This document shows positions 6,497 to 60,147 of a DNA stretch of 64,000 nucleotides, one piece after another. The position numbers and the translations under genes are program-made. The notes below the pieces were generated by a model that saw nothing but the letters and a program-made list of their open reading frames with translations, did no database searches and was not told the origin of the DNA. Position 1 is the stretch's first letter; every line of letters starts with the position of its first letter. Location: sequence record OR455461.1; one strand, written 5' to 3'. The stretch comes from Staphylococcus phage AH12.

Positions 6497-6544
6497 AGAA
6501 AGATATATGATAATATCTTTCTTCATTATTATAATATATACTTA
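6497..6544 (-). promoter_or_regulatory. conserved intergenic hairpin + TATATATTATAA element (candidate phage promoter / 5'-UTR hairpin)
   Basis: AGAAAGATAT...ATATCTTTCT hairpin next to TCATTATTATAATATATAC. The same architecture recurs at 16126-16175, 16821-16870 and 57121-57170. Confidence 0.4.
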
Positions 6545-6548
6545 ATCT

Positions 6549-6854
6549 TTATTTCGTTTCAAACTTTTCAATGCCTTTTTCTTCAATAACTACATCTGCA
6601 TTTAATACTTGTAAACGTTTACCATCTACATTAATAACAATGTAACTACCGCCTGCTTCATCACTATATTTAGTTCTGATTTTCTTTCCTTCATATTGAT
6701 GTAATACTTTACCATCTTTACTATATATAGTTACTTTTCTTTCTAGACCTGATGTATCTGATTTATGATCTTTAGTAGCATCATCAAACCATGTACAACC
6801 TGCTAACACTGTTGTTAATAATAAAACTCCAAATAACATTAAAATCTTTTTCAT
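6549..6854 (-). CDS. lipoprotein (lipobox LAGC)
   Basis: MKKILMLFGVLLLTTVLAGC signal peptide with lipobox. Confidence 0.6.
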   Translation of the reverse strand: MKKILMLFGVLLLTTVLAGCTWFDDATKDHKSDTSGLERKVTIYSKDGKVLHQYEGKKIRTKYSDEAGGSYIVINVDGKRLQVLNADVVIEEKGIEKFETK

Positions 6855-6871
6855 AATTTATTTTCTCCATT

Positions 6872-7357
6872 CTATTCTAGATAATATATTCCTTCACTAA
6901 TATCAATTCCATGCTTTTTTAAATCAGAAGATTTGACTAAATTATTTTTACATACTAATTGTCCATCAAATCTATTTGTAATAATTCCTTTATTATTTAC
7001 TTTTTTAGCAATTGCATGATCTGAAATTCTAATGAATTTAAAATTATTATTTTTTACATATATTGATATAGACCTTTTATTACCGGAAAAATTAGTTATA
7101 TAACCACTTCTAACTAATTCATTTGTTAAACTTCCTTTTACATTACCTAATTCTAAAATACTTTCATTTGTTTTAGAATTAATAAATTTCTTCTTAATAT
7201 CTTCCCCTAACATCACATGGTCATTAATCTCTTTTACTATAGGCATCGTATTAAAGTTGTTCTTCTGTGAGTAGTCTAGAAGAAAGAATAATAAATCTTC
7301 AATTCCTTCTTCTGTGACTGGAAAGACCTCCTTATTTTTATTCTCTAAATACTTCAT
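6872..7357 (-). CDS. hypothetical protein
   Basis: 161-aa ORF. Confidence 0.5.
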   Translation of the reverse strand: MKYLENKNKEVFPVTEEGIEDLLFFLLDYSQKNNFNTMPIVKEINDHVMLGEDIKKKFINSKTNESILELGNVKGSLTNELVRSGYITNFSGNKRSISIYVKNNNFKFIRISDHAIAKKVNNKGIITNRFDGQLVCKNNLVKSSDLKKHGIDISEGIYYLE

Positions 7358-7384
7358 CCGTTTAATCTCCTTTAATTATATTAT

Positions 7385-7717
7385 TTATACAAAACTATTT
7401 AATTCTTTCATATGATAACTTCCTAACTCTAATTTAAGATGGAAATTCTCTATCATTTTATAATTTAAACCATGTTCTTCTAATAATTCTACATTGATAG
7501 TTTCTTCATCAATTTCTAATATTTCTTTTAATGTAAATATATCTGAAGATACTACTGTTAGAGAATCTGCTAAATTATCAAGATCTTTTTCTCTAGAATC
7601 ATCTATATTATAGACGAAACTTTCTTCCATTAAATGCTTGCAATTAGATATAACAATTAAGTCTCCTACAATTTTATCATAAATTCTATCTATAACTTTT
7701 TTACTATCTTTTAACAT
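7385..7717 (-). CDS. hypothetical protein
   Basis: 110-aa ORF. Confidence 0.5.
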   Translation of the reverse strand: MLKDSKKVIDRIYDKIVGDLIVISNCKHLMEESFVYNIDDSREKDLDNLADSLTVVSSDIFTLKEILEIDEETINVELLEEHGLNYKMIENFHLKLELGSYHMKELNSFV

Positions 7718-7788
7718 TATCCATTCACTCCTATTATTTTAATTGATATGAAGTTTATCAACTTCATTTATATAATATATACTTATAA

Positions 7789-57750: not shown

Positions 57751-57897
57751 TTATCCTATATATTTCTATATAAGTCAGACTATATCTTATACTCTTTATG
57801 AGTACCATTATATTTAGTCGTTGAACAATCAATTTGATTGATGCTGATTAACTTTAATTTTCTCAGCAATTAATAATATTATCATTATCATATTACT
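57751..57897 (-). ncRNA. ultra-compact group I intron (beta #2, core 57777-57880)
   Basis: P/Q/R/S core. P9 hairpin TATATAGAAATATATA with a GAAA tetraloop. The element ends ...GGATAATCG before the exon. Confidence 0.5.
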
Positions 57898-58020
57898 ATA
57901 ATAAGCGGCCAAAATTTTTTCATTAAAACCGGTTTTCATTGATCTCGAGGAAGCGTCTAGACTGTATGCGTTTTTCTTTGAGAGGAGCTGCTGTACAATA
58001 ACTTCATACACTATTTTTAA
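57898..58020 (-). CDS. RNA polymerase beta gene #2, internal mini-exon (~120 nt; ..LKIVYEVIVQQLLSKKNAYSLDASSRSMKTGFNEKIL..)
   Basis: Locally G+C-richer island flanked by intron cores. SRSMKTG aligns to ARSTG. The ORF-track entry 57829-58011 reads through into the intron. Boundaries approximate. Confidence 0.4.
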
Positions 58021-58161
58021 TTAGTGTTTAGACTATATATTCATCCTATTAGGAGTTTTAATTTTAGTCGTTGAACTTTATTAAGATTATTCACTTAATA
58101 TTAGATGCTGATTAGCTTCATAAACTTTCCCAGCAATTTAAAAAATTTTACATATACATTA
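58021..58161 (-). ncRNA. ultra-compact group I intron (beta #2, core 58030-58140)
   Basis: P/Q/R/S core. P has TTGCTGGG, which gives a G-U wobble with Q, a change tolerated only at the RNA level. Confidence 0.45.
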
Positions 58162-58205
58162 CTGCATAAGGAGGCTACAACAGTATTTAACCTCTTAACA
58201 TGTAA
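58162..58205 (-). CDS. proposed micro-exon (..HVKRLNTVVASL..) of beta #2
   Basis: Inference. HVKRLNTVV aligns to MLKLNHLVD of bacterial beta. A G+C-richer island between two intron cores. Confidence 0.3.
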
Positions 58206-58340
58206 GTCATTTATCTTTACTATATTCATTTTATAGATGAGACTATATCTTCTTTGCCATATATTTAGTCGTTGAACAATTCAATTGATGCTGATCAACT
58301 TTAAATGTCTTTTCAGCAGTTAATATGATTTTAATTGAGC
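58206..58340 (-). ncRNA. ultra-compact group I intron (beta #2, core 58242-58325)
   Basis: P/Q/R/S core with correlated P and Q substitutions (CTGCTGA / GATCAGCATC). P9 hairpin CTATAaaatgaaTATAG. Confidence 0.45.
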
Positions 58341-60026
58341 TCATACATAAGTTAACCCAACTGGTACTTTATATCTAGTTCTTAATGGATCTTCTTTATT
58401 TCCATCATGTCTATAATAAACAAATTCATTCATAGGAACTTCTAATTTGTCTAAAGCTTCTTGTATTTGATTAATATCAGCTTCAGATTTATTAGGTAAA
58501 ACTTCTATATAGAAATTCTCATCACTATTTATGAAACGTTTAATATATCTCATAAATTCTTCATCATTCATTTCATCGTAAAATGATTTATAATTTCTCA
58601 TATTACTTTGATCTTTATCTAATGAAGATATAACATCAAGTATTTTATTTTGAATTTCTTGACGTTTCTTTTTATTGTCGCTTACTGCTTCATTTAAGAT
58701 TGATTCTGGTTCTAGAATAGTTTCATTTAAAGTATTTTCATTGAATTCCATAAAGAATCTTTCGATTATTTCTATATCACTAGATATTGCTTTTTGGAAT
58801 TCAAAACTAGCAGGAATTTCTTTAACACTAAATTTGAATTCTCCATTATCTTTAACATTCTCATCGAAACCAAATTTGTCTGCACTATATCTATTAATAT
58901 CTTCCATATTACCAAATATAATTGGACTATCAATACTAAAGTCTGCTAATACATATCCTTGTCCATTATATGACACAGGGAAAAGTTTTATTCTATTTTT
59001 AGATGGTTCTACATATGAAATTAACTCTATAGATTTGATCCCTAATTTCTTTTCCAATATTTTAAAATAAAGTAAAGATAATAGGTTAGGATTTATTCTT
59101 CCTTGATCTGGTTTAATAGAGAAGTTTTTATCTAATATCATTGAAGGAGTTACTGTATAATATACTTCTTCAGATTTATCTTCAGTAAATACAGGTTTAG
59201 AATTTTTAGTTTTATTATATAGGTAATTAAAAACATCTAATTCATTTTCTAATTGATACTCATAAATTATATCATTTAATTTATTATCAAATTCATAGTC
59301 TCCATAGAATTTATAGATGTCAGTTTCATTATATTTCAAAACTTCTTTATTTGTGAATAAAGGTGAATTGAGTACATTATTCTCTGTAAATATTTTATTG
59401 TATATAATATCTTCTTTAGAATCTGAGAAAATATTATTTCCCATAGATTCTAAAACTTTTACTAAAGTTCTTAATTTAGCATCATTATAGAAATTATACT
59501 TATCTTTATTATAACTTACATATTCTTCAGAATTTAAATACTCACTAAAATCTTTTCTTTTAGTTGAATCTTTACTTAGAAATCTAACTTTAGTAACTTC
59601 TGTAAGCTTATCAATATCATTCAAAATAGTTTTAATACTGCCAGTATCGTTAATAACGATAGGATTTCCACCTTTATAATCTCCAGCATAATCTATTAAT
59701 ATATCTTCTTCTCTACTCTTTTGATTTTGAAGAACGATGAATCTAATTTGTGTATTATCATTAAAATACTTAATTAAACTAATATCAAACCAACAAGAAT
59801 TTCCTTTTTTATCATGAATTTGATTTTCATTATAATCTAATAGAAAATCTATTTCTGATTCAGTGACTAATATTTCTGTTTCATTCACTAAATCAATAGG
59901 AGATTTAATTACACTGATATTATCTGATCCACATTCAGAACAAGATGTAATATCTTCATTATATTCTTGAACTTTGCTACAAGAATTACATCTAACGTAT
60001 TTATTTTTCAATTCATTCACTTCCAA
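58341..60026 (-). CDS. RNA polymerase beta C-terminal gene #2, exon 1 (N-terminal Zn ribbon; AGDYKGG and ..RHDGNKEDPLRTRYKVPVG blocks)
   Basis: IDYAGDYKGGNPIV aligns to DKMAGRHGNKGVIS. VYYRHDGNKEDPLRTRYKVPVGLTYV aligns to [22 protein letters not shown]. The ORF ends where gene #1 is also interrupted. Confidence 0.5.
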   Translation of the reverse strand: MEVNELKNKYVRCNSCSKVQEYNEDITSCSECGSDNISVIKSPIDLVNETEILVTESEIDFLLDYNENQIHDKKGNSCWFDISLIKYFNDNTQIRFIVLQNQKSREEDILIDYAGDYKGGNPIVINDTGSIKTILNDIDKLTEVTKVRFLSKDSTKRKDFSEYLNSEEYVSYNKDKYNFYNDAKLRTLVKVLESMGNNIFSDSKEDIIYNKIFTENNVLNSPLFTNKEVLKYNETDIYKFYGDYEFDNKLNDIIYEYQLENELDVFNYLYNKTKNSKPVFTEDKSEEVYYTVTPSMILDKNFSIKPDQGRINPNLLSLLYFKILEKKLGIKSIELISYVEPSKNRIKLFPVSYNGQGYVLADFSIDSPIIFGNMEDINRYSADKFGFDENVKDNGEFKFSVKEIPASFEFQKAISSDIEIIERFFMEFNENTLNETILEPESILNEAVSDNKKKRQEIQNKILDVISSLDKDQSNMRNYKSFYDEMNDEEFMRYIKRFINSDENFYIEVLPNKSEADINQIQEALDKLEVPMNEFVYYRHDGNKEDPLRTRYKVPVGLTYV

Positions 60027-60088
60027 TTCTTTTTATTTCTTAATATGATGATGTTTCTTTACAAATTTACCAAAAAATTAAATAAAAT

Positions 60089-60147
60089 AGGTAATGACCA
60101 AATTAATGATCATTACCTGTATTTAATATTATTTATAATGAATATAC
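60089..60147 (-). promoter_or_regulatory. GGTAATGAC-type hairpin + AT-rich TATAAT-like element
   Basis: AGGTAATGACCAAATTAATGATCATTACCT followed by GTATTTAATATTATTTATAATG. Confidence 0.35.

Follow-up and report, generated by a model that had tools for sequence, protein, structure and literature searches.

A predicted stem-loop at the first base of early messages accompanies AR9-type promoters in Staphylococcus phage AH12 and related jumbo phages

Early transcription in the jumbo phage AR9 is insensitive to chloramphenicol and has for that reason been attributed to an injected virion RNA polymerase (RNAP) (PMC5312081). Mapping of 41 early start sites in this phage by differential RNA sequencing (dRNA-seq) and primer extension yielded the promoter consensus AAATATATATTAT-(6N)-G+1 (Lavysh et al. 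2017, PMC5312081), and MEME found the same motif upstream of 29 genes of phage MarsHill (bioRxiv 10.1101/2020.12.14.422802). Long mRNA in Bacillus subtilis is stabilised when a hairpin precedes it at the 5' end or close to that end; stem-loop stabilisers of this kind are known from the Escherichia coli ompA and papA leaders, the B. subtilis aprE leader and leaders of the ermC type (PMC3997798). Here we analyse a stretch of 64,000 nucleotides from Staphylococcus phage AH12 (sequence record OR455461.1), referred to throughout as the window, in which an AT-rich element matching the AR9 early promoters recurs between genes and is regularly followed by an inverted repeat that begins at, or very near, the predicted first base of the message.

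The window is 23% GC and almost all of its open reading frames (ORFs) lie on the minus strand, which is therefore the gene strand. Among Staphylococcus jumbo phages, megablast shows about 93% identity to PB50 and Machias and 82-87% to MarsHill, Madawaska, S6, PALS_2, DC4, LY01 and SA1. The source phage and these relatives are AR9/PBS1-like jumbo phages carrying two split multisubunit RNAPs: an orthologue of the virion-RNAP beta subunit is encoded at 58341-60026, and orthologues of non-virion RNAP subunits at 24124-25746 and at 42263-42814 together with the pieces that follow.

The core of the AT-rich element, TATATATTATAA, has 10 exact copies in the window, all on the minus strand, against 0.81 expected by chance, and none of 100 shuffled sequences reached 10. 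Inspection of the flanks reveals a longer conserved unit, (T)AAATATATATTAT, then a 6-nt A-rich spacer, then a G. With at most one mismatch, AAATATATATTAT-N6-G occurs 12 times where 1.56 copies are expected (0/100 shuffles), every time in an intergenic position on the minus strand; a 13th copy, with two mismatches, belongs to the predicted start site at 57154. As far as the letters alone can tell, the G stands exactly 6 nt past the 13-mer at 13 of 13 sites, and the motif thus agrees with the AR9 consensus in its bases, in its spacing and in the +1 G. Each copy is placed between an upstream stop codon and a Shine-Dalgarno sequence with its start codon. Of the 12 sites whose upstream ORF can be identified, 8 have the stop codon -2 to +13 nt from the 13-mer, and at two sites (27054-27066 and 12351-12363) it overlaps the first bases of the motif. 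One promoter, with start site 42877, precedes the non-virion RNAP beta gene's first piece. When 49 distinct sites of five Staphylococcus phages are combined in a logo and set beside 17 annotated AR9 promoters, flanking preferences common to both emerge, including A at -30/-31. The A at -30 is found in 81% of the Staphylococcus-phage promoters and 94% of those of AR9; T occupies -20 in 89% and -1 in 91% of the Staphylococcus-phage promoters. Given the sequence identity with mapped AR9 promoters, we are highly confident that the AT-rich element is the early promoter read by the injected virion RNAP of AR9-like uracil-DNA jumbo phages, and we infer, transferring the start site from AR9, that transcription would begin at the G of '...AATG'. 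The promoter itself is already known, from AR9 in 2017 and from the MEME analysis of MarsHill. The 13 promoter units, all on the minus strand, are the following.

6497-6543, minus strand: promoter 6531-6543, predicted transcription start site (TSS) 6524, hairpin 6497-6522 (AGAAAGA family, from +3), start codon 6471.
7750-7784, minus strand: promoter 7772-7784, TSS 7765, 6-bp hairpin 7750-7765, start codon 7717.
12321-12363, minus strand: promoter 12351-12363, TSS 12344, hairpin 12321-12344, A8 tail, start codon 12295.
16127-16174, minus strand: promoter 16162-16174, TSS 16155, hairpin 16127-16153 (AGAAAGA family, from +3), start of a small ORF at 16101.
16821-16868, minus strand: promoter 16856-16868, TSS 16849, hairpin 16821-16847 (AGAAAGA family, from +3), start of a small ORF at 16795.
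17814-17855, minus strand: promoter 17843-17855, TSS 17836, weak AU-only hairpin 17814-17835 (-4.2 kcal/mol), start codon 17788.
19837-19885, minus strand: promoter 19873-19885, TSS 19866, hairpin 19837-19866, start codon 19806.
27017-27066, minus strand: promoter 27054-27066, TSS 27047, hairpin 27017-27047 (GAGGTAATGAC stem, -18.5 kcal/mol), start codon 26982 (phrog_478).
28749-28800, minus strand: promoter 28788-28800, TSS 28781, hairpin 28749-28781, start codon 28715.
32939-32989, minus strand: promoter 32977-32989, TSS 32970, hairpin 32939-32970 (GGAGTAATGATGA stem, -17.6 kcal/mol, z = -5.3), start codon 32898.
42850-42896, minus strand: promoter 42884-42896, TSS 42877, hairpin 42850-42877; drives the non-virion RNAP beta piece 42263-42814.
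53206-53225, minus strand: promoter 53213-53225, TSS 53206, without hairpin, 38-nt leader, start codon 53168.
57126-57173, minus strand: promoter 57161-57173 (two mismatches), TSS 57154, hairpin 57126-57154, start codon 57098 (membrane protein, phrog_1486).

We find that these leaders share a fold at the very 5' end. Folding from +1 to +45 and over whole leaders, with +1 placed as in AR9, shows that 12 of the 13 open with a stem-loop, its 5' arm starting at +1 (eight sites), +2 (one) or +3 (three); the leader at 53206 is the exception. Under a fixed definition of the hairpin (a helix of at least 6 bp that starts at or before +4, at -4 kcal/mol or lower), one is present at 11 of the 13 promoters as against 12% of positions between genes and 8% of those in coding sequence (binomial p = 5e-9). 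Chance co-occurrence of promoters with hairpin-rich intergenic DNA is ruled out by this rate of 85% over a background of 12%. The pattern extends to the 52 promoters of five Staphylococcus jumbo phages (the window, PB50, DC4, SA1 and MarsHill), 42 of which carry a hairpin, starting at +1 in 33, at +2 in one and at +3 in eight, with the stem ending at a median of +30 and the start codon at a median of +55. Stems are 6-14 bp long. In 23 of 32 distinct hairpins that start at +1 the stem can be extended by at most 1 bp upstream of +1, so that the helix begins just where the transcript is predicted to start; its register thus lends independent support, at the level of sequence, to the start sites predicted from AR9. 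Nowhere does the terminal hairpin include the Shine-Dalgarno sequence in the folds of 5' untranslated regions (5' UTRs), and a weak second helix overlaps it in four leaders (42877, 32970, 12344 and 6524). The Staphylococcus-phage promoters that have no hairpin have short leaders. A search of the whole window against Rfam gave no match at the gathering threshold.

An earlier sequence-only reading of this DNA had proposed a recurrent element running from stop codon through motif, hairpin and Shine-Dalgarno sequence to ATG, and this order is confirmed at the sites. The promoter is present in all eleven of the main intervals that it named; the hairpin is absent from one of them (53200-53225) and weak in another (17836). 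The copy with TSS 7765 (hairpin 7750-7765) had escaped it. Its expectation that the motif would follow gene boundaries agrees with the position of the copies having at most one mismatch, 12 of 12 being intergenic on the gene strand (1.56 expected), and the likeness it proposed to an early promoter of jumbo-phage virion RNAPs proved to be an exact match to the AR9 consensus. Its division of the hairpins into two families was too narrow. At least seven unrelated stems occur in the window, namely the GGTAATGA and AGAAAGA stems and those at 42877, 28781, 12344, 7765 and 57154, and there are more in the relatives.

Comparison between phages indicates that it is the pairing that has been kept. Stems at equivalent promoters in different phages have changed in sequence and still pair: the promoters equivalent to 28781 in PB50, DC4, MarsHill and SA1 have very different stem sequences, all of which fold from +1 or +3, and the hairpin of the 57154 promoter is kept in the DC4 and MarsHill orthologues. 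The hairpin at 27047 has a conserved tail, TCTAATATATTA, and a compensatory change in PB50 from GAC/GTC to GAT/ATC. The PB50 orthologue of the 53206 promoter likewise has no hairpin. For the hairpin of the non-virion RNAP beta promoter, an alignment of six phages has 98.5% of its cells paired; two pairs have changed on both sides (G-C/A-U and U-A/A-U/G-C) and four switch between G-C/U-A and G-U/U-G, while in a control in which the 3' partner was slid by 1-3 columns only 28-59% of cells pair. With so small a sample, this covariation is supporting evidence, short of proof.

The strand on which the repeat acts can be read from its imperfect pairs. When stems were defined by Watson-Crick pairs only, a definition that is symmetric between the strands, the non-Watson-Crick positions inside or next to the helices comprised 22 G·T and 3 A·C (p = 1.6e-4), and the excess of G·T persists after allowing for the surplus of G and A on the gene strand (expected share about 56%). 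Of the two strands, the sense RNA gives the stabler fold in 27 hairpins and the antisense RNA in 8, hairpins that were themselves ascertained on the sense strand. Given that G·U pairs outnumber A·C by 22:3 and that the sense strand folds better, the inverted repeat probably acts as sense-strand RNA, as a stem-loop that includes the first nucleotide of the mRNA or lies at most 2 nt from it. An antisense terminator, formed by the hairpin followed by ATTTTTAT on the plus strand, is ruled out by wobble pairs that favour the sense strand.

The 19866 unit stands just downstream of the primase gene, and its stem can be extended by 4 bp upstream of +1. The 16155 unit is paralogous to the 16849 unit, and the genes downstream of the two are similar as well. 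The units at 6497-6543, 16127-16174 and 16821-16868 are alike beyond the promoter, sharing upstream sequence (GAAAAAGCGTAA...) and the tail AATAAAATTAAAGGAG; these three combinations of promoter, AGAAAGA hairpin and small ORF look like duplicated cassettes.

The promoter also occurs without its hairpin partner. None of the 17 annotated early promoters of AR9 has a 5' hairpin (Fisher p = 1.4e-9 against 42/52 in the Staphylococcus set), nor has any of the four perfect promoters of Bacillus phage BpSp. In Listeria phage LPJP1 two well-matched promoters are without a hairpin and one copy with two mismatches has a strong one. Since the same promoter stands without a hairpin in AR9, in BpSp and, where well matched, in LPJP1, the hairpin is an addition and not a requirement of the polymerase, an addition found in the Staphylococcus lineage and in some uncultivated relatives. 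The latter are known from IMG/VR, in which the generic promoter pattern gave mostly single chance matches and was informative only for two contigs with the same AR9-type promoter, L077 (IMGVR_UViG_3300006289_000106, 36% GC) and L011 (IMGVR_UViG_3300043093_000048, 23% GC); the exact cassette of promoter plus GGTAATGA was not found in IMG/VR.

What might the hairpin do for the message? For B. subtilis RppH (BsRppH) to act, position 2 must be a G and 2 or more 5' nucleotides must be unpaired; RNase J1 then degrades the RNA from its monophosphorylated 5' end (PMC3997798). In the predicted transcripts most leaders have no unpaired 5' nucleotide and those of the AGAAAGA family have two (G-A); no more than 6% of promoters have G at position +2. 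We infer, at roughly even odds in our own estimate, that the hairpin is a 5'-terminal stem-loop stabiliser of early mRNAs which shields them from decay of the RppH/RNase J1 type. The hairpin would fold as soon as it is transcribed, at the extreme 5' end of the RNA; it would close near +30, leaving an unstructured A-rich linker and a free Shine-Dalgarno sequence. With 0-2 nucleotides left unpaired at the 5' terminus, RNA pyrophosphohydrolase and the 5'-to-3' exonuclease RNase J1 would be denied access, and the early messages, which only a few injected polymerase molecules make, would persist longer. If the hairpin does stabilise early messages, this would explain how a few injected polymerases achieve a fast takeover in Staphylococcus, and it would offer a ready promoter-plus-leader cassette for engineering these therapeutic phages. 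AR9, which is without the hairpin, and the Staphylococcus clade, which has it, form a natural contrast for studying 5'-end-dependent RNA decay during infection.

Hairpins of the same kind also stand in the window without a promoter.

17887-17922, minus strand: terminator-like GAGGTAACGATC hairpin with a T10 run behind it, located upstream of the 17836 promoter.
38209-38240, minus strand: GGAGTAATGATGA hairpin (-19.2 kcal/mol) without promoter, near-identical to the promoter-linked hairpin 32939-32970.
48695-48725, minus strand: GGGTAATGAC hairpin without promoter; only the promoter's 3' half (ATAAAAATG) stands before it, and TCTAATATATTATAAGGAG comes after it.
56029-56054, minus strand: GGATAATGAC hairpin with a T-rich tail; terminator-like, without promoter.
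57197-57232, minus strand: GAGGTAATGAC hairpin (-20.5 kcal/mol) without promoter, 24 nt upstream of the 57154 promoter.
60087-60120, minus strand: terminator-like hairpin of the GGTAATGA family, without promoter; it follows the gyrA stop codon and has a T-rich tail.

Among what the sequence-only reading had called degenerate copies, 57121-57170 is in fact a real promoter with its hairpin on the minus strand, and the others (38209-38240, 48695-48725, 56029-56054, 57197-57232 and 60087-60120) have a GGTAATGA-family hairpin but no 13-mer. The state of 48695-48725, where the hairpin is directly upstream of a Shine-Dalgarno sequence, is identical in PB50. The promoter-less hairpins at 60087-60120, 57197-57232, 38209-38240 and 17887-17922, like those at many sites in L001, L003, L006 and L008, have the GGTAATGA stem, often together with the loop CATTAATTTG and with the tail TCTAATAT; stems of the families ACCTAAC...GGTTAGG and (A/T)TCCAATGA recur as well. 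These recurrent promoter-less stems are sequence-conserved terminator-like hairpins such as have been reported for phiKZ and 201phi2-1. Strong terminator-like hairpins follow stop codons at 44624-44665, 17887-17922, 13063-13092, 6134-6163, 2561-2596 and 1746-1775. In these the T-run begins 4-12 nt past the stem and not at its foot (for example ...GGTTGAGTT aatata TTTTTTTTTTT), an offset that recurs in the relatives.

Several observations weigh against the hairpin as a 5'-end stabiliser. The host of AR9, B. subtilis, also has RNase J1 and RppH and AR9 has no hairpin, so the need for one is not obvious; AR9 leaders are short, with a strong Shine-Dalgarno sequence near the 5' end, and such short leaders may substitute for the hairpin. 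Four of the window hairpins are individually weak (z = -1.2 to -1.6). In the SA1 RNA-seq paper (PMC9414953), which assigns temporal classes to a few named genes, the non-virion RNAP beta gene, which lies behind such a promoter, clusters as 'middle' and not 'early'. Hairpins of the GGTAATGA family (GAGGTAATGAC...GTCATTACCTCTAATAT) keep both their stem and the TCTAATAT tail where the sites are unrelated; the five loci hold roughly 30 of them, about half promoter-less and following stop codons, often with T-runs. This conservation suggests a sequence-specific or termination role that lies outside the stabiliser model. Finally, the stems of L077 and L011 reach 4-6 bp upstream of +1 and have T5-6 behind them; the element in these contigs is a canonical terminator with a start site nested in its 5' arm, at these positions.

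Contig L077, 1340-1400, 7525-7590 and 9230-9290: nested start sites.
Contig L011, 3575-3640: nested start site.

These points lead to the explanation that deserves most attention beside stabilisation, in which the hairpin is a terminator or insulator of the upstream gene with a start site nested in it: read-through RNAs would form the full hairpin and stop, while RNAs begun at +1 would carry a partial hairpin, or be made by a polymerase that ignores it, and would continue. We regard this as unlikely for the element at large. The 13-mer is overlapped or directly adjoined by the stop codon, so that a terminator would not fit between them, and hairpins of the GAGGTAATGAC...TCTAATAT kind, one copy of which is annotated as a terminator in MarsHill, are also found promoter-less after stop codons, often with T-runs; together with the stems of L077 and L011 this speaks for a terminator, as does a weak enrichment of stems that extend at least 2 bp upstream of +1 (9/32 among the Staphylococcus phages against 5.4 expected, p = 0.02). 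On the other hand, a T-run of at least 5 within 15 nt follows 0 of 28 promoter-linked hairpins as against 25% of promoter-less intergenic hairpins, the promoter-linked tails having instead a mean of 4.8 A in their first 8 nt, and in 23 of 32 hairpins the stem stops no more than 1 bp from +1. Moreover, three loci in the window already carry a separate upstream terminator-like hairpin beside a different hairpin at +1 (57232-57197 with TSS 57154, 17922-17887 with TSS 17836, and 42952-42923 with TSS 42877). Because of the A-rich tails and the missing U-tract, a role as terminator of the upstream gene is disfavoured for most promoter-linked copies, which lack this hallmark of an intrinsic terminator; several promoter-less members do have the tract, such as 17887-17922 with its T10. 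The promoter-linked GAGGTAATGAC...GTCATTACCTCTAATAT hairpins may additionally stop read-through from the gene upstream. A combined architecture is also conceivable, if doubtful, with the start site at or inside the 5' arm, so that one and the same hairpin stops or trims read-through RNAs and yet caps the RNAs of the virion polymerase as a 5' shield; the shield would then mark and protect the phage early messages while host RNA is degraded. If true, this promoter-in-terminator would be a compact architecture specific to one uracil-DNA jumbo-phage lineage, which would have gained it after parting from AR9.

The conservation of the GGTAATGA-family stem, of its TCTAATAT tail and often of its loop (CATTAATTTG) at non-orthologous sites, and the promoter-less copies that adjoin a Shine-Dalgarno sequence, as at 48695-48725, would also suit an element to which a protein of phage or host binds, such as a regulator silencing the early messages, or one that guides RNase Y or RNase III so that polycistronic RNAs are cut into hairpin-capped units, RNase Y cutting just upstream of the structure. 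Yet the stems are unrelated from promoter to promoter and have only position and pairing in common, no candidate binding protein was identified, and at 6-14 bp the stems fall short of classical RNase III substrates, which rules out an RNase III site of the T7 early-region type with its roughly two helical turns; we hold recognition or processing to be quite improbable. Premature-termination small RNAs from 5' UTRs and sequence-conserved terminators have been reported for 201phi2-1 and phiKZ (PMC11512511), and the tails of the GGTAATGA family are moderately U-rich. A promoter-proximal attenuator, at which most transcripts would end after the hairpin (at about 30-45 nt) and downstream expression would depend on antitermination or a second polymerase, is nevertheless very unlikely, as the tails are A-rich in most copies and attenuation would throttle genes that are needed first, such as that for non-virion RNAP beta. 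Hardly any weight falls on an element acting as DNA, whether a cruciform or single-strand hairpin that aids the virion polymerase, as in phage N4, whose virion RNAP uses hairpin promoters, or a terminator for antisense transcripts. The opposite strand does read as a hairpin followed by ATTTTTATAATATAT, and several plus-strand copies score as a hairpin with a T-rich tail. Against this stand the wobble count and the stabler sense fold, G·U pairs being mismatches on the other strand, the position of the hairpin downstream and not upstream of +1, and the promoters of the same sequence that do without it in AR9, BpSp and LPJP1; a hairpin promoter of the N4 type proper is ruled out by position (+1 to about +30), by the sense-strand wobble and by absence from AR9 and BpSp. 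As to the functions offered by the sequence-only reading, a 5'-UTR structure, at the extreme 5' end, is favoured; a terminator is disfavoured for most copies and possible for the GGTAATGA sub-family; a processing site is improbable, the stems being too short for classical RNase III sites.

Some features that lie beside the promoters and hairpins may be recorded here. The 42923-42952 hairpin (ATCCAATGACA...TGTCATTGGAT, minus strand) directly follows the stop codon of a UvsX-like recombinase gene and has a tail that is not T-rich; it is kept in PB50, DC4, SA1 and MarsHill, with stems that have changed and still pair. A further motif, TTCTATGATCC, has 11 matches in the window against 2.2 expected and is also present in SA1 (L006) and Listeria phage LPJP1 (L130). 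On the minus strand it is intergenic at 14988-14998, 16547-16557 and 17533-17543, directly upstream of a Shine-Dalgarno sequence (TAATTTTCTATGATCCAACAATAAAAAGG), and several other copies lie inside ORFs, where they translate as FYDP; the motif may represent a second class of promoters or else a signal for processing. A scan for sigma-70 promoters gave 187 matches against 186 expected and is uninformative in DNA of 23% GC. The non-virion RNAP beta gene is split into ORF pieces at 42263-42814, 41538-42074 and 40830-41384 (minus strand, within the stretch 39343-42814), and the same stretch holds a 447-aa zinc-ribbon ORF at 39343-40686; the fragmentation suggests introns or homing-endonuclease insertion, as in relatives. 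The DNA gyrase A gene (60173-63727, minus strand) is interrupted by an intein, with Intein_splicing and Hint domains at residues of about 110-490, and carries the same annotation in MarsHill.

The word 'hairpin' is absent from the AR9 paper (PMC5312081), and the MarsHill preprint (bioRxiv 10.1101/2020.12.14.422802) contains none of the words 'hairpin', 'stem', 'secondary structure' and 'UTR'. The hairpin is not described in the DC4 paper, in the SA1 genome paper or in what a targeted full-text literature search returned, and in the SA1 transcriptome paper, looked through for promoter-related terms only, 'promoter' occurs 0 times. The systematic pairing of a promoter class of a phage polymerase with a first-base hairpin thus seems undescribed in the AR9, MarsHill, DC4 and SA1 papers.

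How, then, do these loci compare with the systems already known? The early promoters of AR9/PBS1 and MarsHill have, like those of the window, the 13-mer AAATATATATTAT, the 6-nt spacer, the +1 G and the A at -30/-31, and they too are intergenic, on the gene strand, before small early genes and non-virion RNAP genes. AR9 differs from the Staphylococcus phages in its short, unstructured leaders, with hairpins at 0/17 promoters against 42/52. The known 5' stabilisers, to which the leader of phage T7 gene 10 also belongs, resemble the window leaders in a ribosome-binding site that is free after the stem-loop and, on the side of the host, in a 5'-end-dependent pathway of RppH and RNase J1. They are, however, properties of single genes, whereas here the hairpin is found on a whole promoter class of a phage-encoded polymerase, and stabilisation is putative. 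Phage N4 is alike in combining a virion-packaged polymerase with an inverted repeat beside the start site; its virion RNAP is a single-subunit enzyme and its promoter a DNA hairpin upstream of +1, whereas the repeat in the window is downstream of +1, shows wobble pairing of the RNA type and is dispensable for the same promoter in AR9. The phages phiKZ and 201phi2-1 (PMC11512511) are likewise jumbo phages with their own polymerases, with conserved-motif hairpins at many gene boundaries; some of their 5' UTRs terminate prematurely, and the promoter-less GGTAATGA copies resemble their terminators. They belong to another phage family with other motifs, and their hairpins, whose definition rests on mapped 3' ends, have no tie to the +1 of early promoters. 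Their hairpins are the nearest precedent for the promoter-less family and for an attenuator, while the closest match to the promoter itself is that of AR9.

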